This document shows, piece after piece, positions 1-20,446 of a DNA stretch of 64,000 nucleotides. The position numbers and the translations under genes are program-made. The DNA is taken from the NCBI GenBank assembly GCA_043775635.1, contig JAYVSE010000111.1, positions 11,002-75,001 of the forward strand. The letters are read 5' to 3'. The notes below the pieces were generated by a model that saw nothing but the letters and a program-made list of their open reading frames with translations, did not search any database and was not told the DNA's origin. This DNA comes from Planctomycetaceae bacterium. GTDB lineage: Bacteria > Planctomycetota > Planctomycetia > Pirellulales > Pirellulaceae. How positions within the stretch are numbered: position 1 is the stretch's first letter; each line of letters opens with the position of its first letter.

Positions 1-1
1 C

Positions 2-2029
2 GACTTCGGAAACAGCGGCTGTTCTCTGGCAGTGAAACTTCGCCGTCCAATGGCCGTCGATGCGATCGAGATGATCCACATCGACATGCACAATCGCGAA
101 AGAGATTTCCACAAGCGGATACCGATGCTGATGTCGGCCGTGCATCTCCACGATATCGCTGTACCCGACAACAATTCAGATCCGCTGTTCCCCGCATGCC
201 AATGGACCTGTGGTGACGATGCTCTTGCAAAGCCGGATGAGCGGGGTCTGGTTGTTTCCCCGAAACGTTACCTGGGTAGGAGCGAAGATGAGCCGGTCAC
301 CGTATACGGTCGCGATGTGAGTTGCCACCTACCTGTCGAACTGCTCATGGCTTCCATTCTCAAGGAGGCGCACTTCGCCATTCGGTACAGCTTGCACTCA
401 GAGGTCGATCGAGGACAACCGACCATGACCCTCACCTACCCATCGACGTTTTCCCGATCGGAGATTTTGCGGCTACAACACTGCTATCTGGCGGCAGTCG
501 AGCGCCTCCTGCCCGCTCGATGTGGTTGCGCCGGTGTCGCCCGACTACCCCGCATGATAGATGAGGCATCCGCAGCTGCCTTCTACTTTCTGTACCGGGA
601 CTTCTTCTACTCGGCAGGTCGGGTGCCAGCGTTTCAATATATCTACCCGCGCGGGGCCAATGTGTTGATAATGGATTTCGGTGGAGGGACCACTGATGTT
701 GCGCTGGTTCACTGTGCCGCGACATCTTTGCCTTCCGTTGGCAGTTCTGGCACTCCCAAGGGAGTGGAGCACAAGGTCCGTATGAAGGTGCTTCGTCGCA
801 CGGGACTGCGCCACTTTGGCGGAGATATCATTACGAGCGCGGTGTTTAAGGTATTGAAAGCAGCAATTGCCGACCACCTGTCGCCAGGAGTTCTGGCTAA
901 GCGGGGAAAGGATGAGAAGTTTGCCGCCTGGTACGCCCGAGAAGCTGCCAATATCGACGTGATCGTGCCCACCATCTTTCGCCGCCTTGCCGCCGGTCCG
1001 AATCGGGATCGCCGCAGACAACTGGCGAAGGATCTGTGGGACTGGTCGGAGAGGGTCAAAAGATGGTTGGGGACACCAAATGAACCCTTTGCGGAACCTG
1101 TCGGAAGTTCAAGTTCTCCTCTGGACGTTATGCTCAGAACCGGTGGTCCGAATCAGCGCCGCAGGCGCGGCCAACTTGCCGCTCTCGGCGGAGAAGAAGC
1201 GCCCGAGGATTGGTTGACGACTCAGCTCCCCAAAAAACTGCAGGCTGAGAAGGGAGATGTGGATGACCAGATCCAGCCGCATCTGACAGACCTGATGAAT
1301 AAGGTCAACAAGCTGCTGAACGCCGAGTTTTCGGAGGCAAATTCGATCAGTGGTGAGGCTGCGGAGTTGCATCGAGCCTACGTCGTTGGACAAGCCGCGC
1401 ATTTTCTGTTGATTCGCGAAGCGATCAAGGGGAAGCTCGCCATACAACTGGTAAATCACAAGCATCGCCAGCATGAACCGGATTGGGACTCGGCTGCTGA
1501 TCTGGACGTTCGGCGGCTCATTTTTGACAAGCAGGAATCAAAGTACGCAGTGGCTAAAGGAGCTGTCTTGTTCGCGTTCGTCAAGACGGGGCTCTTTGAA
1601 GCTGAGTTTGAGGGTGATGAGAATCTGCAGGATCGCCTGCCGTTCGATGTGCTGTACGAAACCTTAGCCACCACCCGCGACATTTATCTGGCAGATGACG
1701 ATTACAATCGGATGAAGGAGCAGTGGGTTTCGATGCCCCTGCTCAGAATCAAAGAAACGGATGGGAATCGTACCATAACTCTTTTGCGACGCTGGCCGGG
1801 TGATGAGACACCAACGGGTAAGTCGGGTGATGAGACTCCCAAGGGTGATCCGTTCTTTGAGTTTTCGATTGGCCAGCCAATCGTTGGCGACCTGAAAATC
1901 CGGTATGCAGAGTTCGATTCCTATTCAGGCTTCGTCCTCAAGGATTTTGATGGGGATGGGGAAGAAATTCGCGGCAAGTGGATTGCGTCCCCGGAGACGG
2001 TTCCCCCAATGCAGCGAGGTGACCTGTGA
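2..2029 (+). CDS. Divergent Hsp70/actin-fold ATPase (nucleotide-binding domain only); 5' end runs off the window
   Basis: The frame is open from nt 2. DFGNSGCSLAV, upstream of the listed GTG at 32, matches the Hsp70 phosphate-1 motif (DLGTTNSxVAV). Other matches: IDEASAAAFYF (cf. NEPTAAALAY), LIMDFGGGTTDVALV (phosphate-2, DLGGGTFDVS), YVVGQAAHFLLIREAI (degenerate adenosine motif, LVGGSTRIPxVQ) and AVAKGAVLFA (cf. AVAxGAA). No canonical substrate-binding domain follows. Confidence 0.85.
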   Translation, partial: DFGNSGCSLAVKLRRPMAVDAIEMIHIDMHNRERDFHKRIPMLMSAVHLHDIAVPDNNSDPLFPACQWTCGDDALAKPDERGLVVSPKRYLGRSEDEPVTVYGRDVSCHLPVELLMASILKEAHFAIRYSLHSEVDRGQPTMTLTYPSTFSRSEILRLQHCYLAAVERLLPARCGCAGVARLPRMIDEASAAAFYFLYRDFFYSAGRVPAFQYIYPRGANVLIMDFGGGTTDVALVHCAATSLPSVGSSGTPKGVEHKVRMKVLRRTGLRHFGGDIITSAVFKVLKAAIADHLSPGVLAKRGKDEKFAAWYAREAANIDVIVPTIFRRLAAGPNRDRRRQLAKDLWDWSERVKRWLGTPNEPFAEPVGSSSSPLDVMLRTGGPNQRRRRGQLAALGGEEAPEDWLTTQLPKKLQAEKGDVDDQIQPHLTDLMNKVNKLLNAEFSEANSISGEAAELHRAYVVGQAAHFLLIREAIKGKLAIQLVNHKHRQHEPDWDSAADLDVRRLIFDKQESKYAVAKGAVLFAFVKTGLFEAEFEGDENLQDRLPFDVLYETLATTRDIYLADDDYNRMKEQWVSMPLLRIKETDGNRTITLLRRWPGDETPTGKSGDETPKGDPFFEFSIGQPIVGDLKIRYAEFDSYSGFVLKDFDGDGEEIRGKWIASPETVPPMQRGDL

Positions 2030-5000
2030 GCGACGCGATTCGCCACATGAATGCCATTATCGCAACATGCTTCTCGTTGGTCCGGCTGAGAGGCCAGTTG
2101 GTCCATCAGGATCCTGCTGTGATTGCGGGCATTGATCGCACCATCGAGCCCCTGTCTAACGCTGTAAGAGTAGCGGGTTGTCGGGCCATCCTTCAAAAAG
2201 ACCTAGGGGATCGAACTTTCGGTAACGGGCTGGTTAATCTGCCAGAGAATCAATTTGAAAAATTTTGTCACGAAATAAAACGTGACACGCTTAATTCATT
2301 CAGCCCGCTGAAGGACAAACATCGGGACCGTTCCGCGTCCTCTCTGAAGTCCAACGGGAGTGAGACCCAGAGATTGTTGAAGGGGATCTGGCGACGGAGA
2401 TTAGGGCTTATTCAGTCGGTAAAGCCTGACTCGATGGACGTGGAAGATCACCGCGAGCAATTGGCCAATGACGCGAAAGCACTGCAAATGGAGGCGCAGA
2501 AGGCAACGGTTCTCAAGAATTCTGTCAGCGATTGGGTCAAGAGTCTCTCAGAAATGTCGCTCGGCTCGGCCGAATGGATTTCCATCCGGGGGTGTCTGAC
2601 CGTGGATGAAGTAGATTCGCCGGTGTCCCCGCGATTCGTGTTGCACCTGGAGAATCTTAGGAACCATCTTAATGTGTTGCTCAACCGCCAGCGTGATGTT
2701 AAGCAGAATGTAAGCCGACAAGCTGCAAGAGAGAGTATTCAACCGGCGCAACAGCGACGTTTTGCGGCGGCTCAAGTGTATGTTGACGACTGCCGGAAAG
2801 ACCTTGAAGAGGTTGACCAATGCCTTTCAGCGGTAGAAGTCGAACTTCGAGATTCTCGCCGGATCGTCAATGCCATCGTGCAGCACATCGACTCCCATCT
2901 CAGTGAATTTCCGCCTGCCACCGGGTTCATTGCGAATCACGCCAGCATCGAGGAAATCAACGCGATTAGGCAAGCCGACCGCAGTTCTAATCGGAGCGAC
3001 GACAAGATCTGTGTGGACGAGAAGGTGTTGGGGCCTCGGTGCAACGAGATTGTGGCGACCGGGCTAATTGTCGAATCGTTCCTGAACCTGCGTCGCGACC
3101 AAAAAGGCATTCCGGTTTTGTCAACTGTTGATGATATTGGCACGTTCATTGCGATGCGTGACGGTTACGACGTGATCGCGAATGTCGAACCCGGAGATGT
3201 ATGGCAGTTCGTGCAGGGGAGCCGTGCCGATGATGGTGCGTACGCCCGCCGTCCATCTCCGGGTCTCGTACTCAAGCAGTCTGGCGGTCGCTTAATCCCT
3301 CTGTTCAAGCTCGAATCCGCCCTGTTTCGCGAGTCGCTGGTCCAACTGTTTCGAGAATCCAAGGCTCTCGACGATGCCTTGGCAGAGCATCTCGAGACGC
3401 GGTGCTCTGAAACACTCAGGAAATTCATGAAGGTTTTGGATGAAACCGTCCTCAGTCTGCCGGAGTTCAATGGGAAATTGCGAGTCCCGGAAACGTCCGG
3501 CCTGATCGAACAGGCGCGAGCCTTGGGGGCCGAGTTGTGGTACGTCCTCCTACAGAGAAGCGATTTATGCATTCACACCTATCGCTTCCTTGGCGCGTTG
3601 AAGAGCGCTGGCATCCGCATTGATATCAGTCCGCACGTCGAAGGCAACGCGACACTGAGGGAAGATCAGGCGAGTTCTCTGCAACTCATCCCCAATCCTG
3701 GCTGCCTGTTTCTTGAACATCAACTGGAGATCGCGTGGTATGACGTTGACGGTAATGTAAAGCGTGAACAGTGTGACTTGCTCTATGTTCCAGAGCATCA
3801 AAATGAGGTGGCGGGACGGCTGGTGCGCTCCGCCAGCAAGATTCGGAAACTTTGCCAGGCATTGTCCGGTGACGAACGCTCGAAGTTGACGCAACTCATT
3901 CAGTTTGTCGTTCAAGCGCCGCCAGAATCTGTCGCGATGCCTGGATTGAAACTTCTCAATTCCCTATTGGGCCGCGAAGGAGACGTTCCAGCGCGGTTGC
4001 GCCAGGAGATTCTGGAGGGATTGAAGGTTGATGGTGTGGAGATCACACCCTGTGATGTCCATCCGGAAAGTTTGGCCCAGCAGTGCGAGACGGGACAATT
4101 GACTAATGTTAAGTTCCAACTGATGGTGGAGGACATTCCCGCTCCGACATTGCGTCTTCGTCAGTTCGGTGCCCCACAAGTGGGCCAGGCAATTGTGGAT
4201 GTTCTCTGCCCCGCGAATGTTGTCGATTCGGTGAAGTGCGTCCTGCAAGATTTGTTCGACGTGGACGTCGATTACTTCCCGTCGCTACTGGCCATGCGCA
4301 GTCGCGCCGTCACCCGCTTCATCAACTCATCCACCGACCTCGAAGATTGGTTGAGGGGCGAACTGCGCGCATGGGTGAATGATCGCGACGAGCATGTATC
4401 CGCTGAGTTGGCTAAGCTCATCTTTGAGCGTCCCAAAGATCCGCTGCTCTCCCTTATCGTCGAGCTCGGAATAATCGACCGGGATGAGTTGGAGGTTCGC
4501 AAAGCGTGTCTGAAGGAAGTGTCCCAAGACGAACTGGAAATTCCACCGGATGCCGTCATGCATTACGTGTTTGAGGGTGTCACGAGGCGGTTTGTTGAAT
4601 TGTTGCTGCCGTCCCTGCCTGATGCATCGCAATCTTCTGATGAGAGATTCCTGGAGGATTTGAAACGGTTTTGTCGTCTGGAACGACATTTCACGCGAAT
4701 TCTTGAGGGCTCGCCATTCTCCCTTGTCCCCAGTTGGATTGACAATGAGATGGGACGCTGTGAGCCTGATTCCAACGAGTCACCAGAGGTCGCGTTTCTG
4801 CCAAACACAACTCAGGGAGAATGGTATGTCCGGCGGGTGGGGATGAAGAAGCGAGAGGGTGGGTATGTTCGCAGTCCGAGCTTCCTTATGTCGGCGGGAC
4901 AGCCATCCGATGCCTACCGGCAAGCGCAAGGATTTGTGGATGTTGTCGATAGACATTACAAGATCCCGACAGATTCGCTTCGGACGGTTCTCCAACAGTG

Positions 5001-5379
5001 GCCGCAAATGGAGATTGTCGGTGACCAACGTCTGGCAACTTGGCTGCGTTATCAACTTCTGGACGAGTTGGCGAACACTGCGAAATCAGAGGCGGTTTGG
5101 CAGATGCCGATCGACTTGCGAGAAGACTTCTTTGGTGACTACGAGTGTACGCTAGTTTCTCTCAACAGATATGTGAAGGAAAAATGGAACTACGAATTGA
5201 ACACGGAAGTGCGGCGTGAAAAGCTGGGTCCAAAATGGAAGGACTCCGTGGAACTTGCGGATGGGCGAACGGATTTTCCTGTTGGTGCAGACGCGGTTTG
5301 CATCCGGCCCATCTTGGAAAAGATTGATGGAACGTTGATTCATAAGGGCGTGGTCAAAATTATAGACAGGCAAAACTGA
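2026..5379 (+). CDS. Large (1117 aa) predicted cytoplasmic protein of unknown function, translationally coupled to the Hsp70-like gene
   Basis: The long ORF starts with GTG inside the upstream stop (GTGA overlap at 2026-2029). There is no TM segment or signal peptide, and I recognise no motif. Competing antisense ORFs are short. Confidence 0.75.
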   Translation: MSDAIRHMNAIIATCFSLVRLRGQLVHQDPAVIAGIDRTIEPLSNAVRVAGCRAILQKDLGDRTFGNGLVNLPENQFEKFCHEIKRDTLNSFSPLKDKHRDRSASSLKSNGSETQRLLKGIWRRRLGLIQSVKPDSMDVEDHREQLANDAKALQMEAQKATVLKNSVSDWVKSLSEMSLGSAEWISIRGCLTVDEVDSPVSPRFVLHLENLRNHLNVLLNRQRDVKQNVSRQAARESIQPAQQRRFAAAQVYVDDCRKDLEEVDQCLSAVEVELRDSRRIVNAIVQHIDSHLSEFPPATGFIANHASIEEINAIRQADRSSNRSDDKICVDEKVLGPRCNEIVATGLIVESFLNLRRDQKGIPVLSTVDDIGTFIAMRDGYDVIANVEPGDVWQFVQGSRADDGAYARRPSPGLVLKQSGGRLIPLFKLESALFRESLVQLFRESKALDDALAEHLETRCSETLRKFMKVLDETVLSLPEFNGKLRVPETSGLIEQARALGAELWYVLLQRSDLCIHTYRFLGALKSAGIRIDISPHVEGNATLREDQASSLQLIPNPGCLFLEHQLEIAWYDVDGNVKREQCDLLYVPEHQNEVAGRLVRSASKIRKLCQALSGDERSKLTQLIQFVVQAPPESVAMPGLKLLNSLLGREGDVPARLRQEILEGLKVDGVEITPCDVHPESLAQQCETGQLTNVKFQLMVEDIPAPTLRLRQFGAPQVGQAIVDVLCPANVVDSVKCVLQDLFDVDVDYFPSLLAMRSRAVTRFINSSTDLEDWLRGELRAWVNDRDEHVSAELAKLIFERPKDPLLSLIVELGIIDRDELEVRKACLKEVSQDELEIPPDAVMHYVFEGVTRRFVELLLPSLPDASQSSDERFLEDLKRFCRLERHFTRILEGSPFSLVPSWIDNEMGRCEPDSNESPEVAFLPNTTQGEWYVRRVGMKKREGGYVRSPSFLMSAGQPSDAYRQAQGFVDVVDRHYKIPTDSLRTVLQQWPQMEIVGDQRLATWLRYQLLDELANTAKSEAVWQMPIDLREDFFGDYECTLVSLNRYVKEKWNYELNTEVRREKLGPKWKDSVELADGRTDFPVGADAVCIRPILEKIDGTLIHKGVVKIIDRQN

Positions 5380-6212
5380 TGGGCAGGCAGAGTTCTTCTA
5401 TCTCCGAACAGTCGGTGCCGCCGCAGTGGCCAACTGCCCCTGCGTGGGTGCCAATCGCCGCATTCATCGTCGCCTTGGCCGCTGGAATCGGCGCACGTAG
5501 CGTTGTCCCAGACCTCAGTACGCAACATCTTCTGTCAGGTTCGGTGGTCGCCAGTCACGTGCTGGCCGTGACATTCCTAGTCTGGTTCTTGTCGGATGCC
5601 TGGGCCGCTCGGGCGTCCCTCCGCGCACTGGACAAGGAGTGGGTAAATCGCAGGATTGCCGCGCGGCGCATGATCACAAATCCCACCCGCATCGTGTTGG
5701 ATCTTGAAGAAATGCTGTACGCGTTTCAGGAGCGTTGTTCTTCCCGTTGGATTTGGATGTTCATCTTCTCCATATCAATCTCGCTGCTTGGTTTTCATGC
5801 CTTCGTAACTCATGTGAGAACAACAACCACTCCCGTGCAGTCTGCCCCCCTCGAACTCTTGCTGGTACCCATGGCTGAGTTCTTGCTGGTTTCCGTGATT
5901 ATTGTAGGCGGATCTGCTTGGTTACGTCGCGAACGGGCGCTGGCCGGGGAGCAGATCAAAGCGCACGTCAACGCATATTACAATACAGGCGAAGTCGCGA
6001 AATTGATAAATGTCTCCGACCACACGATTGAAGAAAATTTAATTTCGATCACCCCGCCCGAACCCACTCCTCCCGTGACTGGCGACCGGGAGGACATTTG
6101 GGGGAATTCATCTGGTGCATCAAAGAGTGCGCCCTTCGATCCATTTGGGAATGTTACTGGCGGACGACCGCCGAAGTCTTCGAAAGCTTCTCGGAGCGAT
6201 CCATCCGCATAG
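5379..6212 (+). CDS. Four-TM inner-membrane protein with a Pro/Ser-rich C-terminal tail
   Basis: TGATG stop/start overlap at 5377-5381. Hydrophobic helices: WVPIAAFIVALAAGIG, VVASHVLAVTFLVWFL, WIWMFIFSISISLLGFHAF, LLLVPMAEFLLVSVIIVGG. Confidence 0.7.
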   Translation: MGRQSSSISEQSVPPQWPTAPAWVPIAAFIVALAAGIGARSVVPDLSTQHLLSGSVVASHVLAVTFLVWFLSDAWAARASLRALDKEWVNRRIAARRMITNPTRIVLDLEEMLYAFQERCSSRWIWMFIFSISISLLGFHAFVTHVRTTTTPVQSAPLELLLVPMAEFLLVSVIIVGGSAWLRRERALAGEQIKAHVNAYYNTGEVAKLINVSDHTIEENLISITPPEPTPPVTGDREDIWGNSSGASKSAPFDPFGNVTGGRPPKSSKASRSDPSA

Positions 6213-6224
6213 AGGACGAACACG

Positions 6225-8591
6225 ATGAAGACTATGGGTGATCTTTGGGAATTGCCAGCGCTGACGATAGCAGTCGCGTGGGCGACTTGCCTCTCGTGGA
6301 TGGGGCTGTTTTTGGCTCCGTCTCCGCCCGAAACCTCGACCGACAGAATCGTCATTACTTGGGAAGAGTCTCAATCAGAAAGCCCCGCCCCGACGGGGTC
6401 GCCCCAGAATGGAGTCGATGATCCCAGTAATCCACGGTCAAGTTCCCACCCCGCACGCTACCAAATGGGCTATCTCCCGCTGAAGGTCATTCCTTCTCTC
6501 GATTCTCCCTTGTCCATCCGCTACGCGGCAAAATTCGGTGGCAACGCCAAGATTTTTCACCGCACGATTCCACCAGGAACCAGTTCGATCGAACTCCCGT
6601 TCTATCTCGGTCCTCGCGAAAGCGAACTCCAAGTCGAAACAGTCACCTGCGAACTGCTGCTCGACGAAGGCTACAATGTCGGGGAGCACACGATCCACAC
6701 TCGATCGTTCCGGGGCCGAACACCGGTTGCGTGGCTGGTGGCAAATCAAGCCGAACTTATCGAGAGCAAGACTGACGCGGTCACCTTTCTGTTGCACGCC
6801 GAAGCTCCGTTGCCCACGCAGGCATCTGTCTCCTTTCGGTTGTCGGGCACTGCTTTCGAGCAGGGCTTTTATCGTCGTACTGACGACGTGACTCAGTTCA
6901 CAATACCTGCCGGCGGGCAGGACAGTCGCGAGGTGTTGAGCATTCGTCGGGAGAAGTCGCTGTCGGGAGCTAATCGGCAGCTCATTCTCGAAACGTTGGC
7001 CAGCAACGATCTCCACATTCACAATTCTCCGCTCAAAATCGTTTGTTCCGCCGCTGCTGCACCCCAATTTTCTGCCAGCCTCTTGAAGCAGAGTATTTCG
7101 GAAGGAGCGAGCACGACGATGCAGATTCGCCTTCTTTCCGGTGTCGTTCCAGACGACGGAGTTCCATTCTCAATCGAATTTCCCGACAAACAGTTGCGGG
7201 TGACTCCGAGCACAGGAAGCTTCGGCAAAGAGAAGAGTGAAGTGTCGATCGAGGTGGAAGCCTTACCCGACAAGTTGGCCTTTGAAGGCGAATCTCGCGA
7301 GCAAATCAAAGTTAGCATCAATGAACGCGACGTCGTGCGCGAGGTGCGGGTGGTCGATGCCACTTCAGCGGTGCTGCGGTTTTCCAACGAGACGGGTAAG
7401 CTTGATGTGAAGGAGGGTGCCAAAAGCCCGGTCGTATTGACGGTCGAACTGACAGATGAAGTCATCGCTGCAAGCCCGGTCGCGATTCCATTTGTCCTGA
7501 CTGCCCCGGACGACTCCGCAAAGAGCGAAATCACGACGGTGCCTGTGGGAGTGTGGAAGGACAAGAAACTGAGTGGGACGCTCCAGATTCCGGCAGGTTC
7601 GAGCCGTGCCACGCTATCGCTGTCTTCTCCGGATGACGAGCGAATGCAAGAACCTGATCTGATGTTCCGACTTGATTTCTCCGATGAGGGAAAGCCCTGG
7701 CAATTCTTTGATGGTCGCCCCCGATCATTTGCTGTGACCGTCGTGGATGACGATCTGTTCCGGTACATCCCAATTACTCCTGTTCCCGTTGCCGAATCCG
7801 CCGAACTGACCGTCGTCAAGATTCTGCAGATCAAACCGAAACTTTCGACCGCAGAAACGCTCTCATTTACGATCGAGACAATATCGACCGCTGGCCCGGC
7901 GGACTACCGCATAGGGTTGGAAAAACAGGGCGAGGCTTATCGGTTGCCGTTGCTCGCTGGGGCTGAATTCGGCACGATCCCGATCCATGCGATTGCTGAT
8001 GGCATCTTTGAAAACACCGAAACCATCAAGTTGAAATTCCCCGACACGGTGTCTAAGGAACCGATCGTCATTGAGGTGGAGGATAAGGACCAAGCTGGCA
8101 GCGTGCTGGTTCTGGTCATTGCGAATGATGCGATCAGGGCCTCTCTCCCGGAGCAACTGAAAAAGCTGCAGGCGCTCCCGGTGGACTTGATGGCTCGGAC
8201 GGTCCATCTGGTGGACGGATCGGATACCCCATATCTGGGGGGTGGATCGATCGACCTTGCAACGCTTGATTACATCAAGTCGGCGAACGACGGCACTGCC
8301 ATCGAGAAGGCGATCGCAGCCTGGACGACTATCACTGCCGTTCGGAAACCGAAGGTAACCTGCATTGTCTGGATGTCCGACGGTGCAGGTCAGGGTACAT
8401 TCAATGCTTGGGATCCCCAAAAACGACCGGAGAACGAGATCCACCTCGTCTGGTTGGGTGGGGAATCAGAGAAAAAGAATGTTCTCAGTTGGATTACCTC
8501 TCCCTTGGAAGAAATTGACCCAACGGCAGTCCAGCGGCTGGATCGAAATAGTCCCAATGCAAGCAGCGTCATCAGTCAACTTCTTCGTTAG
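6225..8591 (+). CDS. N-terminally anchored envelope protein with several Calx-beta-like repeats and a C-terminal vWA-like domain lacking MIDAS
   Basis: 12-nt gap after the previous gene. N-terminal TM segment LTIAVAWATCLSWMGLFLA. Repeats of the type SVSFRLSGTA...FTIPAGG...SI and TAGPADYRIG...LLAGAEFGTIPIHAIADGIFENTETIKLKF resemble Calx-beta. The C-terminus has VLVLVIANDAIRAS and CIVWMSDGAG, a vWA-like beta1 and DG strand without DxSxS. Domain calls are by eye only. Confidence 0.65.
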   Translation: MKTMGDLWELPALTIAVAWATCLSWMGLFLAPSPPETSTDRIVITWEESQSESPAPTGSPQNGVDDPSNPRSSSHPARYQMGYLPLKVIPSLDSPLSIRYAAKFGGNAKIFHRTIPPGTSSIELPFYLGPRESELQVETVTCELLLDEGYNVGEHTIHTRSFRGRTPVAWLVANQAELIESKTDAVTFLLHAEAPLPTQASVSFRLSGTAFEQGFYRRTDDVTQFTIPAGGQDSREVLSIRREKSLSGANRQLILETLASNDLHIHNSPLKIVCSAAAAPQFSASLLKQSISEGASTTMQIRLLSGVVPDDGVPFSIEFPDKQLRVTPSTGSFGKEKSEVSIEVEALPDKLAFEGESREQIKVSINERDVVREVRVVDATSAVLRFSNETGKLDVKEGAKSPVVLTVELTDEVIAASPVAIPFVLTAPDDSAKSEITTVPVGVWKDKKLSGTLQIPAGSSRATLSLSSPDDERMQEPDLMFRLDFSDEGKPWQFFDGRPRSFAVTVVDDDLFRYIPITPVPVAESAELTVVKILQIKPKLSTAETLSFTIETISTAGPADYRIGLEKQGEAYRLPLLAGAEFGTIPIHAIADGIFENTETIKLKFPDTVSKEPIVIEVEDKDQAGSVLVLVIANDAIRASLPEQLKKLQALPVDLMARTVHLVDGSDTPYLGGGSIDLATLDYIKSANDGTAIEKAIAAWTTITAVRKPKVTCIVWMSDGAGQGTFNAWDPQKRPENEIHLVWLGGESEKKNVLSWITSPLEEIDPTAVQRLDRNSPNASSVISQLLR

Positions 8592-8617
8592 GAAGTTGGA
8601 GTAATGAGAGGCATGTC

Positions 8618-10312
8618 ATGACACAAAAGAATAAGCCCCAGATCGCTCATGCGTCCGGTTCCGCCCCGAATGTGGAACACATCGACAGCGATGTGTCATC
8701 TGCTGGAAGCACCTCGCAGGCGGCTTCGATCCCGTCAAGGCCCCTACCAAATCCACCGGCGCCGTTCTCCTTGGGCGATGCGTTGTGGTACACAAATCCA
8801 ATTATCGGCCTCGCTACCTTAGTCATTTGTTGCAGCATGCTTCTCGGCATTGGACCACGACGGGTCTCCTTAGGAGAAAACCAAGGTGCCAACGCTATAA
8901 TTCTGACTGCAGAGATTGGTCAGCCTGCGGACGCCACTCGGCCGGAAAACGCAACTACTGCGACACCTGAGCACGGACCAAAGTCTAGTCCGATGGCCGC
9001 TTCCATCGACAATCAGCCGACTACGGCAACTCTTCAACTGGATCAAGGCCAATTCGATGCACTCGTGACTCGTCTGCTTGATAGACCGGAAATAAAGACC
9101 CCGCTTGAAAACCTAGCGGCTGTGAATAATACCGTTAGTGAGAACACAACAGCGATAAAGAGCTTGACCGAGTTAATTACCAAACGAGACAAGTTAGACA
9201 AGTTAGCGGCTGACAAAGATATTAAACATGAAATCGAAATAGAAATTCGGGCTACTAAAGATGCGATCACTGCCGCGGAAAAGGAATACAACTCGAAGGT
9301 ATCCACAAGACAGGAAAAGCAATCCGAACTAACAAAGCTACGGGATGAATACAAAGCGATGGATACGGCCTTGGAAAAGGAACATACAAAGCTAAAAACG
9401 GAGTTTGAAAGGAAAAAACAGGACAATGCTGCGGCAGTCAGGAGTCTCGAAGTAGAACTTGCCAAAGAACTGGCAATCCGTGGGTACAAAACCCAAAACC
9501 TGGATCTCAAAGACCCGACATTCTCCAGCGCCCTTCAGTTCTTTCGTGCAGCTGCGATAGACGGGATGAAAGAGGCCAGCAATTCTTCGAATGAGAAGCA
9601 CCTCGCTCAATTGCGAGAGCTTCAGTTAGCGGTCGCAGACTTCAAGCCCTCCAAAAACAACTCGGTGGCGATCGTCATTCCCCATCTCCAGCATAAACTT
9701 TGCGAAAAACGAATTATCCCTGCCCTCCAGCAAATGGAACAGGAGTTCAGCACGTGGGAGGCCAAAATCCCCGGCTTGGAAATCCGTTGCTATCTCGTTT
9801 CTCCGAAGTCGCCATTCCTCTTTCGCGAACCGCTTGCATCCCGCTCTTCAGTGAAAAGTCCTTTGCTGACATTCACTCCCGACGGAAATCTGGTTCCCGA
9901 TAGCGTCGAATGGGATAAGGTGACCGCAGATCGAATCCTGCTACTAGCGGAATGCCCGGAAACAGGTTTGCTGTACGAGGGTAAAAAGACATTCCCACTT
10001 CCTGACAATCAGTCTCGACCAATTGAAATCGTATTACTCCCAAATCTGACGCCAAATCAATTATGGAAGAAGGACAAGCAGGGAACTCCAACCGCCGAAG
10101 AGTTAAAGATCTGGTACGAACGTTCGATATCTTCAAATCTGACGAGCTTGACCATCGTCTGCGCGAAATCCGATCCTGCGCCGGCAGGAACAGAACCCGT
10201 CAACTTCGAGTCTCGACTTCAGTGGTCGATCCGGCGCGCAATTTTGCCGGAAGGCATGGAATTCTCACCGCCCCGAGTTCACGCATCCCGAGGTCAGAAT
10301 GAATCGAAGTAA
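8618..10312 (+). CDS. Single-pass membrane protein with a long coiled coil and an alpha/beta C-terminal domain
   Basis: GAGAGG lies upstream of the ATG. TM segment IIGLATLVICCSMLLGIG. A Lys/Glu-rich heptad-like stretch (KLDKLAADKDIKHEIEIEIRATKDAITAAEKEYNSK...) is followed by alternating hydrophobic strands (VAIVIP, IRCYLV, ILLLAE, IEIVLLP, LTIVCAK). Confidence 0.7.
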   Translation: MTQKNKPQIAHASGSAPNVEHIDSDVSSAGSTSQAASIPSRPLPNPPAPFSLGDALWYTNPIIGLATLVICCSMLLGIGPRRVSLGENQGANAIILTAEIGQPADATRPENATTATPEHGPKSSPMAASIDNQPTTATLQLDQGQFDALVTRLLDRPEIKTPLENLAAVNNTVSENTTAIKSLTELITKRDKLDKLAADKDIKHEIEIEIRATKDAITAAEKEYNSKVSTRQEKQSELTKLRDEYKAMDTALEKEHTKLKTEFERKKQDNAAAVRSLEVELAKELAIRGYKTQNLDLKDPTFSSALQFFRAAAIDGMKEASNSSNEKHLAQLRELQLAVADFKPSKNNSVAIVIPHLQHKLCEKRIIPALQQMEQEFSTWEAKIPGLEIRCYLVSPKSPFLFREPLASRSSVKSPLLTFTPDGNLVPDSVEWDKVTADRILLLAECPETGLLYEGKKTFPLPDNQSRPIEIVLLPNLTPNQLWKKDKQGTPTAEELKIWYERSISSNLTSLTIVCAKSDPAPAGTEPVNFESRLQWSIRRAILPEGMEFSPPRVHASRGQNESK

Positions 10313-13076
10313 TGCAATTAGTATACTTTTCATATTCGGGTTTTGGATGGCGATTGGGGTTGCCGCCGAAGCCGCGCGAAAGCCCTGTTACGTGGCTCAT
10401 GACAGGTACAATCCGTACAGATCGATTGGCACGGATGGTCCAGAGTATGCCGACCTGACGCAGGGCACTCGCTTCATGCAGCAATTCGAGTTCGACCCAG
10501 CCGAGAATGTGCAGCGTGGTGAGAAGATTTTTTCAAAGCTCTATAAGGCGAACGGAGTCGTGTTCGGCTATGTCGAACAGGATCTCATGGTGATCGGCAA
10601 CCAAGCCGCTTTGGTTAGTCCCAGAATAAAAATTCATCGCAAGGTTCGACTTGCCAACTCCGAGGTGTACCTAGCGACGGAGCAGAATAGCGAAAAAACG
10701 GTCAAAATCCCCGCTTTGCCGCGTCCCGAAGTGGACGCTAAACCTCTGAACGAATATCAACTGGCGAATCTGTTCTTCGTATACAAGGAAACGCCGGAAT
10801 ACTTTCTTGTGGGCAGCAGCTTTGCGTTTACGGAGGAAACGGGCAACACGGCGGCTAATGCCGTCAAGGGCTGGATTCACAAAAGCCGGTGCATCGAATG
10901 GAACACACGTTCGGCACTGGAATGGAATTGGGAGAACGCCGATCAACGCGAATTACCCGCCGTCATGTTTTCGGCTGCTGAATCCGCTGAGAGAAACGAG
11001 TTTTCGGAAAAAAAGACGCTGGATCTGATTAAGGAGTACGCCAAGGGACTGCGCAAGACAAAAGCCGACTTTCGACTGATTTCTCAAATGCCAGAAACAG
11101 AACTTCGAACGAGTGCAGAAGCCCGATTGGCGACAATGAACCTGCAGGATTTGCAGCGATTTATCAGTGATGCTCGATCTGACAATGTTGATGCCGTGAC
11201 GACAGGAACCGAGGCCGAACTCAGGCAAAAGGCGCAAAAGACACTGAAGGGAAGAACGGTGGAACAACTGAAGCAGGATGCTGCCGAAGATCTGTTTAAC
11301 CGATATCAGGACTATATTCACGAGCCGTTTGTGTTCGAAAAGGGTCGTTGGAAGTTTCCACGTCTGCATCCGAATGAGCCGCGAATGCCCCTGCTTAAGG
11401 ATCTCAAGTTCTCCGAGAACTTCGCGAATATCCCCCAACTGCAAAGTTTCAATGGCTATACGGTGGCAGCGACGGCGGGATTTCAGGGAACAATCACCGA
11501 TTCGGAACGATTGCAACTGCAGGAAAAGGCGCGGCTCGCCTTGGCGGCGCTGCGGCGTCTCGACGTACTCCTGTTGATTGATTCCACGTCAAGCATGCGC
11601 CCATACATGGTGGCGTCACTTGGTGCGGTGGCACGGCTCGCCGACGAACTGCGAAACGATTCGTCAGTCGAGGTACGGTTCGCTCTTGCGTTCTACCGGG
11701 ACTATTCTGACAACAAAAAAAATTGGTTTACCTTCCTAGACTACACACCAATTCCGGTTGAGAACCTGAAAGTGGAGGGGACACGTCGTGCGTTTCAGCG
11801 TGTTGTTCAGGCCATGACCGAAGAGCGCAAGAACAGTAACACGACGCGAAAAAACACTGAAGACGCAATTCGCCAACTGCTGACATTGTCCCAGGATCCA
11901 TTCTTCGTAATGCTCGATCAGGCATATCGTGTGGACGCAATCGACGGTGGAAACACGGTTCCCGAGAGTGTGTTTCGCGCAGTTTCCGAATCGCTGGATC
12001 GAAAACGATCTACCGGTGACCGGATGGAATTGGCAATTGTCATCGGCGACGCCGGGGATAATGGGGATAGCGGATTGAGTCGCACTCAGCTTGCACAGAA
12101 GCTGATTGGACGTCACCAGCAGATGCCCACTGGCCTTTCCGTCATCAACGTGGCTGGCGACGACGGTCACGCATTGGAAGCGGACTTTCAAAGTATTGCT
12201 GAATCGATCAATGCGCGTTTCAACGAGAACAATGACGTGAATGCGCCCGGATATACCCAGGTGGCAGCGTGGCAGCGTGGAGAAACACCCGAGCAGACTG
12301 TCCGGGCAATCGTGAAACAGGTTGCAGACCTGAAACTGCAGTCGCAGAGTTCATTCGGGGGCGTCGTCGATATCATCAGTGGTGCATTTCGCACGGCGGT
12401 CCTGTCACAGACTGCTAAGAACATGCTGAGAGCCCAGGGCGTCAAGGTCGAGCAGTTGCGATCGATCGAGGGAGCCGAGATATTTCGGACCTCCATTGTC
12501 CCGTACGAAAAAGATTTCGTCGATGCAAACAATCCGACCGTTGTCATCAAACGCGGCTCATGTGGGGTGCGCGTCAATATAATGATGAGAGATCTCGAAG
12601 TCGATCAGCTGGTTAAAGCTCTCAAGCTGATCGTGGGCGAAGATATCCGTGGGCATCAAATCAAGGACGGTGACACTTTGCGTTCATTGCTCGTTAAGTC
12701 TGTGGAGATCGTTTCCGGAGAGGCGAATTCAAAAAAAACGTTCAGCGAAGCGATGGAGTCGTTGGGAGGGCTTCCGGTTCATTCGCCTTTGATGAGGAAG
12801 CCGGACGAATTTGAAAAACTTATGAACGATAAGAAGTCGCTGGACCGGGAGTTAGAACGGCTAACGATGGTGCGTAAGCGATTGGAGGATGTGCTCGTAA
12901 ACCGATACTCGCGACTAGAATGGAAAGACGGAAAAAACAAAGACGGCTTTCCAACTCGCGAACTCACTTATTCTGCCGATCAGCCGTTTAGTCCACCGCC
13001 GAAGACGCGTTCATTCACGTTTAGCGATGGGGTTTACAAGTACTATTGGGTGGACTACGAACACGAATACCCCTAG
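10299..13076 (+). CDS. Secreted von Willebrand factor A (vWA) domain protein with an intact MIDAS
   Basis: Overlaps the upstream gene by 14 nt, with GAGG 5 nt before the ATG. Signal peptide ISILFIFGFWMAIGVAAEA. DVLLLIDSTSSMRPYM carries DxSxS. FALAFYRDYSD and LAIVIGDAGDNGDS are typical vWA strands. Confidence 0.85.
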   Translation: MNRSNAISILFIFGFWMAIGVAAEAARKPCYVAHDRYNPYRSIGTDGPEYADLTQGTRFMQQFEFDPAENVQRGEKIFSKLYKANGVVFGYVEQDLMVIGNQAALVSPRIKIHRKVRLANSEVYLATEQNSEKTVKIPALPRPEVDAKPLNEYQLANLFFVYKETPEYFLVGSSFAFTEETGNTAANAVKGWIHKSRCIEWNTRSALEWNWENADQRELPAVMFSAAESAERNEFSEKKTLDLIKEYAKGLRKTKADFRLISQMPETELRTSAEARLATMNLQDLQRFISDARSDNVDAVTTGTEAELRQKAQKTLKGRTVEQLKQDAAEDLFNRYQDYIHEPFVFEKGRWKFPRLHPNEPRMPLLKDLKFSENFANIPQLQSFNGYTVAATAGFQGTITDSERLQLQEKARLALAALRRLDVLLLIDSTSSMRPYMVASLGAVARLADELRNDSSVEVRFALAFYRDYSDNKKNWFTFLDYTPIPVENLKVEGTRRAFQRVVQAMTEERKNSNTTRKNTEDAIRQLLTLSQDPFFVMLDQAYRVDAIDGGNTVPESVFRAVSESLDRKRSTGDRMELAIVIGDAGDNGDSGLSRTQLAQKLIGRHQQMPTGLSVINVAGDDGHALEADFQSIAESINARFNENNDVNAPGYTQVAAWQRGETPEQTVRAIVKQVADLKLQSQSSFGGVVDIISGAFRTAVLSQTAKNMLRAQGVKVEQLRSIEGAEIFRTSIVPYEKDFVDANNPTVVIKRGSCGVRVNIMMRDLEVDQLVKALKLIVGEDIRGHQIKDGDTLRSLLVKSVEIVSGEANSKKTFSEAMESLGGLPVHSPLMRKPDEFEKLMNDKKSLDRELERLTMVRKRLEDVLVNRYSRLEWKDGKNKDGFPTRELTYSADQPFSPPPKTRSFTFSDGVYKYYWVDYEHEYP

Positions 13077-13209
13077 GAGTCTGTCCGAATACCGTCGAAC
13101 GTCTGGATTTTACGGGGGATGGCGCTAAAAGACGCGTGCGGGATTGTTCATTTCTTGGCGGGGGCGGTTTGCGGGCTCGGATTGGTGGTGCTCGGGATGG
13201 GAGTCAGGG

Positions 13210-13911
13210 ATGAGTCGCACGTTTCGTGAGTGGTCTCCGGAGCAGATGTGGATGTTTCCGCCGTCGCCGCAGGACTGGTTGCCGGAAAATCATCTGGTCT
13301 ATTTTCTGATGGATGTCTCGACGCAACTGGACCTGGCGCCGATCGTGGCTTCGTATGACAGCGAGCAAGGTGGCCAGCCGCCGTATCATCCGCGGATGAT
13401 GCTGGTGCTGTTGTTGTACTCGTACTGCATCGGCGTGTTTTCGTCGCGGAAGATCGCGGCTCGGTGCGAGACCGACGTGGCCTTTCGAGTGATCGTGGGC
13501 GAGACCATTCCCGACTTCCGCACGATGAGTGAGTATCGTCGCAGGCATCTCGAACAGTTTCAGCAGTTGTTTGTCGAGGTGCTGCGGTTGTGTCAGGAAG
13601 CGGGGTTGCTGAAGGTGGGTCGCCTCGCGTTGGACAGGACGAAGGTCAAGGCGAATGCGTCGCGACACGTTTTGGTCTCAAACCGCGCCATGAGTTACGG
13701 CCGCATGACGACTGATGAGCTGCGTCTGCAAGCGGAGATCGCCGAACTGTTGAAGCAGGCTCAAACGACGGACGCGGCCGAAGACCGTGAGCATGGCCGG
13801 GATCAGCGCGGTGATGAATTGCCTGCGGAACTGGCTCGGCGCGAAAACCGGCTGGAGAAGATTCGTGAGGCCAAGGCGGCGTTGGAAAAACAGGCTCGCG
13901 AGGCCGCGTTG
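13210..13911 (+). pseudogene. IS5/IS1182-type transposase, N-terminal fragment only (DUF772-like region plus coiled coil; the DDE core is missing)
   Basis: MSRTFREWSPEQMWMFPPSPQDWLPENHLVYF...YHPRMMLVLLLYSYCIGVFSSRKIAARCETDVAFRVIVGE..PDFRTMSEYRR...LALDRTKVKANASRH...AMSYGRM...RGDELPAELARRENRLEKIREAKAALEKQARE is the conserved N-terminal half of this transposase family. It runs without a stop into the ABC ATPase. Confidence 0.75.
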
Positions 13912-14748
13912 GTGGACGCGGACTCAGACAAGGATAGCTTGGTCTTTGAATTGGACAATGTGACCTGTCGACTCGGAACCAATCTCGTGCTGGATCGCGT
14001 GTCTGCGAAGATTCGAGCGGGTTCGGTCACGTTCATCTGCGGGCATTCAGGATCGGGGAAATCCACGATGTTGAATCTGCTCGGGTTGCTTCGACCCGAA
14101 TTTGAAGGTGGTGATGTCACGCTCCGGCTGGATGGTATGGAACCTCGCCCTTATCGAAGCCTATCGATGTCGAGTCAAACGGGATTGAGAAGCGACTATT
14201 TCGGCTTTGTACTGCAGTCATCCTATTTGATGCCCTCGCTGTCGGGACGACGCAATATCGAGATGCCGCTCGTGATCCACCAGTCGAGTCAACAAAAACG
14301 GACGGAACGACTGGAACGGTTGTTGGATGCAGTGCCCGCGGACTTGCGAGAGGCGATCGACAAACCCCCGCACATGGCGTCTGGCGGACAACAACAGCGA
14401 ATGTCGGTGCTCCGAGCACTCATTCATGATCCCAGGGTCGTCCTCGCCGACGAACCGTGCGCCAATCTCGATCCCGTCAACCGAGACATGGTGATGGAGT
14501 TGATGATGGCGTGGAAGTCCGGGGCACTGTGGGCAGTGGATGATCAGAAACCCGCTCCCAACAGAACTCTCCTGATTGTTAGCCACGACTCAGAGAGCGT
14601 TGTCCGGCGCGCAGACGCTATCGCGGTCCTGCGAAACGGTCGGTTGGTGAATGGGCGAGTCCTGCAACGTGCAGAATTGCATGCCGACCCGTTTTTGGCC
14701 AGACAGCAGTTGGAACGGTTGATGGAGAACGGTGCCGTTGAGTCGTGA
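13912..14748 (+). CDS. ABC transporter ATP-binding protein (MacB/LolD-like); native start replaced by the in-frame transposase fragment
   Basis: Walker A GHSGSGKST, signature ASGGQQQR, Walker B VVLADEP, H-loop region IVSHD. It is part of the continuous ORF 13144-14748. GTG at 13912 is a possible independent start, so the start is uncertain. Confidence 0.8.
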   Translation: MDADSDKDSLVFELDNVTCRLGTNLVLDRVSAKIRAGSVTFICGHSGSGKSTMLNLLGLLRPEFEGGDVTLRLDGMEPRPYRSLSMSSQTGLRSDYFGFVLQSSYLMPSLSGRRNIEMPLVIHQSSQQKRTERLERLLDAVPADLREAIDKPPHMASGGQQQRMSVLRALIHDPRVVLADEPCANLDPVNRDMVMELMMAWKSGALWAVDDQKPAPNRTLLIVSHDSESVVRRADAIAVLRNGRLVNGRVLQRAELHADPFLARQQLERLMENGAVES

Positions 14749-18467: not shown

Positions 18468-19646
18468 ATGGCCGTGTGGATGATCATGCACGAAGCATGT
18501 TGCGCGGCGATCGACTCACCCGTATACTTCACGAAACTCACTTTACGTGCCGTGAACGACGCCTCTCCAGACCATCGGCTACCCGACGACACTGCACCTT
18601 TCCCGTCAAGTTCTGAAACGGTCGTCGGGCTTGTTTCTGTACCAGACCAGAGTCCGTCGAGTCTGTCCAATGGCGAGGTCATTCCGGCGTTCGCACGACC
18701 CGGCGAGTTGACGGATTCCAGTCTTCGTGTCCGCCTCGCAGAAGCCCGGGAGGCGTGGCTGACCCGATCGCCCTCCCTGCAAACGCGCGACTGCTATGCA
18801 CGCGATCTCCAGCAATTTCTCGGGTTCGTCGGTGCTGCTCCCAACCAGCTCGAAACACTCGTGACGATCCGCCCGGCGCAGGTTGCCGCGTGGCGGGATC
18901 AACTACGCGAACGCGGCCTCGCGAATGTCTCGATTCTCCGAAAGCTCACGGTCCTCCGTTCACTCTTCTCGTACCTCCAAACCTACGGCTACACCGGGGC
19001 GAACCCCGCTCACAGCAGCTTCGTCCAGGCTCCGAGTGTGCCGCGCGATGGCAAGACTGTCGGTCTCTCCCCACAAGACTGCCGACGCCTGCTCGAAGCT
19101 CCCGATCTTGATACGCCGGTCGGTCTCCGCGACCGGGCCATCCTCGGTGTCCTCGCCTATTCCGCGTGTCGAGTCGGAGAACTCGCCCGGCTCCGCGTGC
19201 GGGACTTCAAGGAAAGTGGTGGGCACAAGGTGCTCGAACTCTTCGGCAAGGGAGGAAAGGAACGTCGTGTCCCGCTGCATCCCGAAGCCGTCGAACGCAT
19301 CCTCGCGTGGCTCGACAAGGCTGGCCTGCGCGACGATTCGCACGGGCCGATGTTCCGGGCAACGGCGACCGCTCGCGGACAAGGCCGCGATGGCTTCAGG
19401 CCCTCACCCCTCTCGAAGCGGGCGATTCAAGCCCTCGTGAAGCAGTATGCCCGCGAGCTGTGTCTCGATCCGGCGGTGACAGTGCATTCACTCCGGGTGA
19501 CGGCCCTCACCACGGGTCGCGAACGGGGAGCCGACATCATCGATCTGCAAGACTTCGCCGGACACGCCGATCCGCGCACGACACTCACCTACATTCGCAG
19601 TCGTGATCGTCTGAGCAAAAGTCCCACATACACGCTGCGGTATTGA
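18468..19646 (+). CDS. Tyrosine recombinase / phage-type integrase
   Basis: Core-binding-type N-terminus (TRDCYARDLQQFLGF...QVAAWRDQL). Catalytic region: GLRDRAILGVLAYSACRVGELARLRVRDF...HSLRVTALTTGRERGADIIDLQDFAGHADPRTTLTYI (R...HxxR...H...Y). Confidence 0.85.
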   Translation: MAVWMIMHEACCAAIDSPVYFTKLTLRAVNDASPDHRLPDDTAPFPSSSETVVGLVSVPDQSPSSLSNGEVIPAFARPGELTDSSLRVRLAEAREAWLTRSPSLQTRDCYARDLQQFLGFVGAAPNQLETLVTIRPAQVAAWRDQLRERGLANVSILRKLTVLRSLFSYLQTYGYTGANPAHSSFVQAPSVPRDGKTVGLSPQDCRRLLEAPDLDTPVGLRDRAILGVLAYSACRVGELARLRVRDFKESGGHKVLELFGKGGKERRVPLHPEAVERILAWLDKAGLRDDSHGPMFRATATARGQGRDGFRPSPLSKRAIQALVKQYARELCLDPAVTVHSLRVTALTTGRERGADIIDLQDFAGHADPRTTLTYIRSRDRLSKSPTYTLRY

Positions 19647-19738
19647 TGCGAAAGCGGGGGGATTGCGATCCATGTGTACCAGGAGTACACCCGTCTTTGA
19701 GAACAGCGCCAAGACTATTCATTCCCGCCCGACACTCC

Positions 19739-20056: not shown

Positions 20057-20093
20057 GTCCCACATGTTTGGCGGACGCATCCACTCGTTTCCT

Positions 20094-20438: not shown

Positions 20439-20446
20439 AGAGAGTT

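Follow-up and report, generated by a model that had tools for sequence, protein, structure and literature searches.

The sequence analysed was a 64,000-nucleotide (nt) stretch of the Planctomycetaceae bacterium assembly GCA_043775635.1 (contig JAYVSE010000111.1, positions 11,002-75,001, forward strand), hereafter called the window. It opens with six plus-strand genes encoding an Hsp70-like ATPase (protein E) and five further products (proteins F to J, Table 1). The coordinates of these six open reading frames (ORFs) and of all five junctions between them were reproduced exactly as first annotated. E and F overlap by 4 nt at 2026 (a GTG start over the TGA that ends at 2029), F and G by 1 nt at 5379 (stop/ATG), and I and J by 14 nt at 10299, while gaps of 12 nt and 26 nt separate G from H and H from I. 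Neither promoter-like sites (4 vs 7.4 in shuffled sequence) nor terminator-like sites (15 vs 17.1) were enriched within the six-gene block; these counts are compatible with, and no proof of, a single transcript. Direct scans with Pfam, NCBIfam and PADLOC gave no above-threshold match for five of the six window proteins.

The frame of the E gene was found to be open from base 2 of the window. A Logan contig identical to the window (SRR23617269_23815) gave an E protein of 897 amino acids (aa) starting 665 nt before the window; the ORF called at 32..2029, with a GTG start and 665 aa, is a window-edge artefact. In its 5' flank this contig carries a gene for a PGAP1-like hydrolase, a gap of 563 nt, and then genes A (550 aa), B (429 aa), C (445 aa) and D (742 aa). 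The initial annotation had placed E at the head of an operon of six genes. Because at least four same-strand genes, A, B, C and D, precede it, the Hsp70-like gene is instead the fifth of a cluster, and the unit is also longer at its other end, where an ATP-binding cassette (ABC) ATPase and an FtsX permease lie 3' of J. Sequence comparison indicated that the window carries the 3' part of a conserved cluster of 10-12 genes in Planctomycetota, in the order A, B/C, D, E, F, G, H, I, J, often then the ABC ATPase and the FtsX permease.

By pattern and tblastn scanning of one genome per GTDB species, at least 50 loci were detected, and family hidden Markov models (HMMs) located the A-B-D-E block in at least about 20 Planctomycetota species genomes. 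Full-length E had ~11 close relatives in a word-indexed database of 5.8 billion clusters, all of them planctomycete. The carriers were contigs assigned to Planctomycetaceae, Fuerstiella, Gemmataceae, Fimbriiglobus, Urbifossiella, Pirellulales and Kuenenia. Among the matches listed, the fixed order was seen in the matching contig and in about 25 other Planctomycetota loci. The contexts of the E relatives L002, L003, L004, L057 and L058 (L numbers denote the loci compared) showed the order A-B-(C)-D-E-F-G-H-I-J. BLAST gave orthology at each cluster position with 22-35% identity, and B and C were identified as paralogs. The start-stop overlap of E and F was kept in four of four close loci. Because more than 20 independent contigs repeat the same gene order although their proteins are just 20-35% identical, the association of these genes is not due to chance.

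The positions differed in their constancy. Among the matches listed, D lies immediately 5' of E in every locus with upstream sequence, and in at least 14 loci the gene that comes next after E finishes with the conserved C-terminal domain of F. The position of G was conserved in eight loci. J was found 3' in 13 of the 16 matches listed with at least 7 kb of downstream sequence, and homologs of E and F are thus syntenic with a vWA gene in most informative loci, as had been put forward for checking. In L016, L022 and L026 (Gemmataceae), which keep A-B-D-E-F, J was not detected in the at least 7 kb searched downstream. The invariant core of these loci is A-B-D-E-F and not E-J.

Protein E is built of an Hsp70-type nucleotide-binding domain (NBD), whose helical IIB-like insert is enlarged (aa ~496-667), between two beta-rich domains, one at the N-terminus (aa 1-215, outside the window) and one at the C-terminus (aa ~756-880). 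It was not detected by the Pfam HSP70 model. The motifs AAIDFGNS, KR(310/311), DEASAAAF, DFGGGTTDV, FGGDxIT, VVGxAAHF and VAKGA were invariant in 10 homologs and would correspond to the Hsp70 motifs phosphate-1, K70/R71, NEPTAAA (E171), phosphate-2, LGGEDFD, adenosine and AVAxGAA, respectively. Residues D223, K310, E410, D447, T452 and D454 were likewise invariant in the 10 homologs; in this motif alignment they appear equivalent to D8, K70, E171, D194, T199 and D201 of DnaK, and E is predicted to keep the whole set of catalytic residues. When the E profile was compared with PDB sequences, the matches were almost exclusively to Hsp70s, all of them weak, and hhalign aligned E to an intermediate protein bearing PF00012 with a probability of 99.5%. 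The AlphaFold2 (AF2) model of E had a predicted local distance difference test score (pLDDT) of 74 and a predicted template-modelling score (pTM) of 0.75. In Foldseek its top 50 PDB matches were all Hsp70/Hsp110 proteins (DnaK, BiP, Ssb, Hsp110) with probability 1.0; DnaK 4b9q scored best (E 2.8e-20). For the NBD-only structure 7rax the template-modelling score was 0.72. On the model, E is placed in the Hsp70 superfamily of ATPases (ASKHA/Hsp70 nucleotide-binding fold), and its first description as Hsp70-like therefore stands.

No sequence match to a canonical substrate-binding domain was found in E. Because full-length DnaK in the ATP-open state outscored the NBD alone in Foldseek, and E has a C-terminal beta domain, it is possible that this domain represents a degenerate form of the beta part of the substrate-binding domain. 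Pfam matches to DnaJ or GrpE were found in no cluster protein, in agreement with the earlier failure to spot a J-domain or a GrpE partner by eye.

The product of the gene preceding E, protein D, matched Pfam Dynamin_N at 4.6e-9, with 37 bits vs a cut-off of 27. The D family profile matched SynDLP at 7.8e-19 and also Campylobacter DLP, mitofusins, Nostoc BDLP and IniA. The G1 motif GxxxxGKS and the G3 motif DxPG were invariant in the family, and the Asp of the G4 motif TKxD (D344) nearly so. These features identify D as a bacterial dynamin-like protein (BDLP), a GTPase of the BDLP/mitofusin type, with no Pfam match to Dynamin-like_hel_bact. Its best match in PADLOC was LeoA of Eleos (1.4e-11), which covered only ~70 residues of the G domain.

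The conserved part of protein F is its last ~240-300 aa, with invariant SAG..P and RP motifs. Neither the single sequence nor a 13-sequence profile gave a signal against families, the PDB or PADLOC. An exhaustive phmmer search of 1.84 billion representatives with F returned six proteins only, and a word-indexed search with the F profile, too insensitive here, returned F itself. These family, PDB, Pfam and phmmer searches agree with the early remark that the protein has no recognisable motif: F has no detectable relatives outside the cluster, and it appears translationally coupled to E. Because proteins with a GrpE domain follow E-like genes in L032 and L034, it was considered whether the C-terminus of F could be a GrpE-like nucleotide-exchange factor. 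In hhalign, the comparison with L032 gave E 0.012 and a probability of 3.6%, with none for L034, and the HMM of the F C-terminus had no match to the L032/L034 proteins; the idea is retained as no more than a weak lead.

Protein A has a kinase-like cytoplasmic domain, one transmembrane (TM) segment and an external C-terminal part. Its profile gave weak kinase matches (LanKC at 0.0016, VRK3, CK1, YabT, PknI). Because the consensus LHxxGxxLGLxxPxNV...LPDLGF has the HRD Asp replaced and a DFG-like Asp kept, the cytoplasmic part is at best pseudokinase-like. For the secreted proteins B and C no homologs were detectable, and comparison of their profiles with the PDB was uninformative.

For the remaining products, hydropathy reproduced the topology described initially, with four TM segments in G, an N-terminal signal or anchor in H and J, and a single TM segment in I (aa 61-79). 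Across four orthologs of G, 3-5 hydrophobic segments were seen. The Calx-beta-like repeats noted early in H were borne out by profile comparison. The Pfam Calx-beta match at aa 519-604 (nt 7779-8036) had E 0.02, and the ortholog in L004 matched at 2.4e-5, Pfam scores lying just below the cut-off (24.8 vs 27 bits); the H family profile hit CBD1/CBD2 of NCX1 in two stretches at E 6.3e-6. The N-terminal hydrophobic segment of H is either an anchor or a cleaved signal, and its C-terminus is a candidate alpha/beta domain as judged by eye. Outside its TM segment, protein I forms a coiled coil on the external side (aa ~155-340) and ends in a globular part. Weak SMC and LmuB coiled-coil matches, and a profile comparison with the PDB that gave M-protein-type coiled coils only, agree with the coiled coil first assigned to it.

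Protein J has a vWA-like domain (aa ~420-640, nt ~11556-12218) flanked by a conserved N-terminal and a C-terminal domain. It had been described as a vWA protein with an intact metal-ion-dependent adhesion site (MIDAS). The MIDAS-like motif D428-S-T430-S-S432-M at nt 11580-11597 did hold, being kept as [VIL]3-D-x-[TS]-x-[ST]-M in 12 of 12 family members, and the Asp of 'GDxGD', the expected beta4 Asp, was present in most members where covered. An invariant Glu (E556) occupies the usual position of the MIDAS Thr, and the vWA matches are coherent but sub-threshold. Pfam matches below threshold were obtained with VWA in 6 of 12 members (best 7e-4; L002 ortholog E 0.0015), VWA_4 in 5 and TssR_VWA in 4. 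The J profile matched mostly vWA domains in the PDB, among them those of collagen VI, integrin alpha-1 and CobT at weak E values of 0.026-1, and its top match, also weak (E 0.017), was the uncharacterized protein 3rag. A word-indexed search, too insensitive here, returned J itself and one Fuerstiella protein. J is probably a divergent vWA protein.

The ABC ATPase was found 3' of J in L001, L010, L014, L020 and L056, as the very next gene in L010, L014 and L020. In the window, the N-terminus of the ABC ORF contains an in-frame fragment of a DUF772 (IS5-type) transposase (aa 77-146, 2.5e-17). In Fuerstiella L056 the ABC gene, which encodes 299 aa, starts within the end of J, and an FtsX permease gene (precomputed Pfam) comes after it. 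Because of this arrangement, it seems that in the window the remnant of an insertion sequence (IS) has come to lie between J and the ABC gene by insertion; the ABC/FtsX pair may thereby have lost its coupling to the operon. In L014 and L020, the ORF that follows the ABC gene showed the same N-terminal TM pattern as the FtsX permease of the window, which is the probable last gene of the cluster. An ABC ATPase was thus found together with an FtsX-family permease, the pairing of Type VII ABC (MacB/FtsEX-type) systems. Past this pair, a secreted protein with a PKD_4 domain and a Cys-rich C-terminus is encoded both in the window (16538-18184, plus strand) and in L056 (9236-11014, minus strand), and it may be a conserved neighbour of the pair.

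The next part of the window, ~18468-30500, has a GC content of 59-63% vs 51-57% elsewhere in the window and encodes an integrase, a TrwB/VirD4/HerA-like ATPase and other proteins (Table 1). It looks like an adjacent integrative or conjugative element and not like the carrier of the cluster. A separate, canonical tandem dynamin operon was observed at 52004-57277 on the minus strand; it is not linked to any Hsp70-like gene. Upstream of it, at 57794-59506 (minus strand), lies a gene for a secreted protein that was judged by eye to be a trypsin-like protease (GYSGCP).

Table 1. Positions of the genes of the cluster, of other features in the window and of GTPase genes beside related loci (window coordinates unless an L number is given)
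Feature	Position	Strand	Basis or remark
Gene 1 / E, Hsp70-like ATPase	(<1)..2029	+	3' 675 codons only within window
Gene 2 / F, 1117-aa cytoplasmic orphan	2026..5379	+	ORF call
Gene 3 / G, small 4-TM inner-membrane protein, low-complexity tail	5379..6212	+	hydropathy
Gene 4 / H, anchored or secreted Calx-beta protein	6225..8591	+	Pfam, profile, hydropathy
Gene 5 / I, single-pass coiled-coil membrane protein	8618..10312	+	hydropathy, coiled-coil matches
Gene 6 / J, exported 925-aa vWA-like protein	10299..13076	+	sub-threshold vWA matches, motif
ABC-transporter ATPase ORF	13144..14748	+	Pfam ABC_tran 2.3e-21 (aa 283-440, nt ~13990-14463)
FtsX-family (MacB/FtsEX-type) permease	14794..16311	+	precomputed Pfam FtsX; TM1, large external domain, C-terminal TM bundle
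Tyrosine integrase	18468-19646		integrative-element block
DUF932 gene	21958-23370	-	integrative-element block
TrwB/VirD4/HerA-like ATPase	25892-28075	-	integrative-element block
Toprim protein	29284-30492		integrative-element block
691-aa BDLP	within 52004-57277	-	Dynamin_N 8e-28, Dynamin-like_hel_bact 7e-24
494-aa TM protein	within 52004-57277	-	tandem dynamin operon
Second DLP-like GTPase	55520-57277	-	P-loop GDFNRGKST
Gemmataceae zinc-ribbon GTPase gene	L011:932-3076		5' of A
Gemmataceae zinc-ribbon GTPase gene	L022:1702-3852		5' of A
Gemmataceae zinc-ribbon GTPase gene	L023:2-2770		5' of A
Gemmataceae zinc-ribbon GTPase gene	L025:2-1948		5' of A
Gemmataceae zinc-ribbon GTPase gene	L026:2047-4218		5' of A

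Clustering of the ORFs that flank the other loci returned mostly antisense shadow ORFs; the genuine recurrences were the ABC gene after J and, in Gemmataceae, a zinc-ribbon (ZnR) GTPase gene before A. The latter, directly 5' of A in five Gemmataceae loci, encodes a P-loop GTPase with a zinc ribbon (GHGKT, Walker B DTGGE, TKGD) and parallel beta-helix repeats, and its predicted features fit the published description of DO-GTPases. In L058, from a Planctomycetia metagenome-assembled genome (MAG), a TM-rich protein with GYF_2 and DUF4190 domains is encoded directly 5' of A (2710-3351).

More distant relatives of E were found in other settings. In L032 (7342-19777), the genes that come after a planctomycete D-E pair encode a protein whose C-terminus is GrpE-like, one with an FGE-sulfatase (FGS) domain and a STAND-type NTPase; such surroundings are typical of conflict systems. 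The L034 locus (3429-13483, Bryobacterales MAG), which contains a distant E relative, has genes in the order vWA-like protein, Tubulin_2 (E 1.5e-56), ZnR-HSP70 (PF00012, 4e-12) and a protein with a GrpE C-terminus; it fits the theme of tubulin and HSP70 in Kaur et al. 2020 (PMC7159879), here in an acidobacterium. L029 (9542-19982) and L031 (9620-18709) each have two tandem E-like genes followed by a gene for a 1340-1420-aa protein weakly similar to F, which suggests that the E-F pairing extends to planctomycete cluster types without a detectable dynamin gene. Hsp70-like proteins of Firmicutes, of ~890 aa and without Pfam matches, were also distantly related to E. One such gene adjoins a phage baseplate hub/VgrG-like gene in Sporosarcina limicola (L037, 8663-14280), and another adjoins a gene for a 1481-aa Ig-repeat protein in a Lachnospiraceae bacterium (L036, 8735-15871). 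Because their neighbourhoods differ, these Firmicute E-like proteins (~900 aa; L036, L037 and others) were excluded as members, and their contexts appear to be different and likewise undescribed.

No description of this planctomycete cluster was found in the literature within a coverage that left out most subscription journals, which agrees with the initial statement that no characterised system of this gene content was known. By analogy, the systems closest to the cluster in their mode of working would be those of GTPase plus HSP70 described by Kaur et al. 2020 (PMC7159879). That work describes planctomycete GTPase-centric systems with a ZnR-GTPase carrying a Walker-B glutamate and with GYF and TM proteins as components, proposes an 'NTPase thresholding' logic, and presents couples of an NTPase chaperone and a vWA protein as a recurring theme. 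Shared with the cluster are membrane-proximal multi-gene sets with a GTPase, an HSP70 (sometimes without the peptide-binding domain), vWA, beta-sandwich repeat proteins, kinase-type components and TM proteins, the occurrence in planctomycetes and, at some of the loci compared here, a nearby ZnR-GTPase with the Walker-B glutamate or a GYF and TM gene. The cluster differs in that its GTPase is of the dynamin/BDLP family and not a DO-GTPase ('dynamin' is absent from PMC7159879), in that it has no variable effector, and in its fixed gene order. No Pfam match to DO-GTPase, GAP1, GASH, FNIII, EAD or GrpE was obtained in the cluster proteins, Pfam models for these being assumed present.

A second precedent is found in cyanobacteria, where BDLPs of the 'chaperone clade' have a gene with a DnaK domain immediately downstream (Jilly et al. 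2018, PMC5827413). The BDLP gene and the Hsp70-type gene stand there in the same order as D and E, and the best solved relative of D is the cyanobacterial SynDLP. The cyanobacterial arrangement is only a pair, however, without the kinase-like, F, Calx-beta, coiled-coil, vWA and ABC/FtsX genes, and in contrast to its DnaK, E has extra N- and C-terminal domains and escapes the Pfam HSP70 model. MoxR-vWA/Bat operons share with the cluster a chaperone-type NTPase encoded together with vWA-domain and TM proteins. They differ in that J is exported, neither cytoplasmic nor BatA/B-like, and in that the constant partners of E are the dynamin and the orphan F; no AAA+ or MoxR match was found in any of the 10-12 cluster genes. 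The GTPase-plus-HSP70 neighbourhoods and the cyanobacterial BDLP-DnaK pair are closer precedents than MoxR-vWA.

Eleos and DynA of B. subtilis have in common with the cluster a dynamin-like GTPase as the membrane-acting component, and D partially matches LeoA. The cluster lacks a LeoBC partner, and Eleos and DynA lack Hsp70-like, vWA and ABC parts; no second DLP was found in the cluster that could form a pair of the LeoA/LeoBC kind. Type VII ABC systems (MacB, FtsEX-EnvC, LolCDE) resemble it in having an ABC ATPase and an FtsX permease beside anchored periplasmic proteins that include a coiled coil; they differ in that here the link of ABC/FtsX to the cluster is one of gene position alone, seen in five loci, with the IS fragment intervening in the window. 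Because their defining components are absent from the cluster, Bat/MoxR, Eleos, DO-GTPase/GAP1 and gliding or adhesin assembly were each rejected as its identity.

With regard to location, D, E and F (of NTPase type or partner) and the ABC ATPase are cytoplasmic; A, G, I and FtsX are embedded in or anchored to the membrane, as is H if its N-terminal segment is not cleaved; and B, C and J are exported, with putative metal-dependent binding folds. Taking these together with the precedents, we tentatively read the cluster as an envelope-spanning machine for membrane surveillance or remodelling that would be protective in conflict or stress (phage, toxin or envelope damage), a reading that we prefer without holding it to be probable. 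In such a machine the external metal-dependent modules (vWA, Calx-beta and B/C) would sense a ligand or damage, either on the cell surface or within the periplasm, and the signal would pass the membrane via the single-pass proteins A and I, via G, and possibly via a mechanotransmitting ABC/FtsX pair. The dynamin-like D would then assemble on the cytoplasmic side of the membrane and remodel it by tethering, sealing or scission, while E with its dedicated partner F would load, regulate or disassemble the D assembly. Eukaryotes pair dynamin with Hsp70 for vesicle scission and uncoating. The proposed action of E may be likened to that of Hsc70 on coats and on assemblies of the dynamin type, as well as to the 'NTPase thresholding' of PMC7159879.

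By likeness to DynA, Eleos and the systems of Kaur et al. 2020, we favour membrane protection over general protein folding as the possible role. The conflict role is favoured because of the conflict-type accessory genes and the neighbourhoods of the relatives, and because F, G and I have diverged fast; the window cluster also abuts an IS fragment and an integrative element. Several points weigh against it. The direction of signalling, the contacts between D and E and between E and F, and the ligand are what we infer. The vWA status of J relies on sub-threshold matches, and its AF2 model, built from a two-sequence alignment, had a pLDDT of 33.5 and was unusable. The accessory 5' genes vary by locus and may be mere neighbours, and the PGAP1-like, GYF and remaining 5' neighbours do not recur among the loci. 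Family scans recognised no effector (nuclease, protease, pore-former or NADase) in the conserved set, and both the content and the order of the genes vary unusually little for a conflict system. The GC content of the cluster, 51-55%, matches the flanking chromosome and not the adjacent mobile element. No homologs of E were found in PLSDB plasmids or INPHARED phages, and an IMG/VR search with E gave generic giant-virus Hsp70 matches only. Finally, the Gemmataceae sequences formed a coherent clade in a neighbour-joining tree of E, which fits long vertical inheritance and a housekeeping role.

Several of these observations also speak for a lineage-specific housekeeping machine, which is possible, if on the unlikely side. 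It would build or reshape an envelope feature specific to planctomycetes, for example membrane invaginations, budding or FtsZ-independent division, surface fibres or a holdfast, or the uptake of macromolecules, with the dynamin and the Hsp70 as a membrane-shaping motor and with ABC/FtsX and the coiled coil acting like FtsEX-EnvC. Because the order is fixed, the cluster is restricted to one phylum, its GC is host-like and no effector is present, this role comes closely behind the conflict role. The order holds in classes as deeply diverged as those of Kuenenia, Gemmataceae and Planctomycetaceae, and the restriction to one phylum was seen among the matches listed in the scan of one genome per GTDB species. 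Of the 12 products, seven are envelope proteins and carry domains of adhesion type, and FtsX-type permeases such as those of FtsEX and MacB are known to drive periplasmic partners mechanically. On the other hand, the ~30 planctomycete matches listed were all MAGs or metagenome contigs, with no cultured reference strain among them, and the G-J module is absent from some Gemmataceae loci. In the E tree the two Kuenenia sequences stood apart and the Fimbriiglobus sequences split into two subclades, and conflict-type neighbour genes occur at several loci.

The initial annotation had seen an 'Hsp70-vWA' system in which the Hsp70-like protein takes the place of MoxR. E would then mature, metallate or activate the exported J, with the other genes encoding envelope clients. 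The co-occurrence of E and J noted above (13 of 16 loci), the recurrence of chaperone NTPase and vWA couples (PMC7159879) and the vWA link of the distant E relative in L034 fit this scheme. Against it, the invariant neighbours of E are D and F, J is dispensable in the three loci that retain A-B-D-E-F, and no partner logic like that of a MoxR-like AAA+ ATPase, such as a cytoplasmic vWA protein, is seen. Because E is cytoplasmic and J signal-bearing and exported, direct chaperoning would have to come before export. We regard this scheme as improbable. The view that hypothetical genes happen to lie in a row on one strand, or that ORFs were mis-called, which the scarcity of family matches in the window proteins might suggest, is hardly credible, being contradicted by same-order orthologs of all ten positions in more than 20 contigs at low identity, by the conserved start-stop overlaps and by the confident structural model of E.

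As predicted from sequence, the real object has a core of dynamin, Hsp70 and orphan, joined by a membrane partner that is kinase-like and by an envelope module (vWA/Calx-beta/ABC) that is optional. This defines a large and conserved cluster of Planctomycetota that is wholly without annotation, in which a bacterial dynamin appears hard-wired to a dedicated Hsp70-fold ATPase with intact predicted catalytic residues and to an orphan partner. Concrete candidates are thereby offered for the regulation of bacterial dynamins, and the 'NTPase chaperone plus vWA' grammar would be extended from AAA+ and DO-GTPases to dynamin-Hsp70 pairs. For F, B/C and G no homology was detectable, and for I and the J N-terminal domain there was no match beyond the coiled coil and vWA.

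The membrane biology and the FtsZ-less division of Planctomycetota are still unexplained, and endocytosis-like uptake has been reported for the phylum. It is conceivable, although with little likelihood, that the cluster is a trans-envelope machine of Planctomycetota in which dynamin and Hsp70 shape the cytoplasmic membrane while the FtsEX-like pair and the periplasmic proteins act on the outer layers, making it a candidate part of FtsZ-independent budding or division or of endocytosis-like uptake. The apparent patchiness and the lack of cultured strains among the matches listed argue against a universal essential role. If the defensive reading is true, the cluster would be a new membrane-level immune system; if the housekeeping reading is true, it would bear on planctomycete cell biology.

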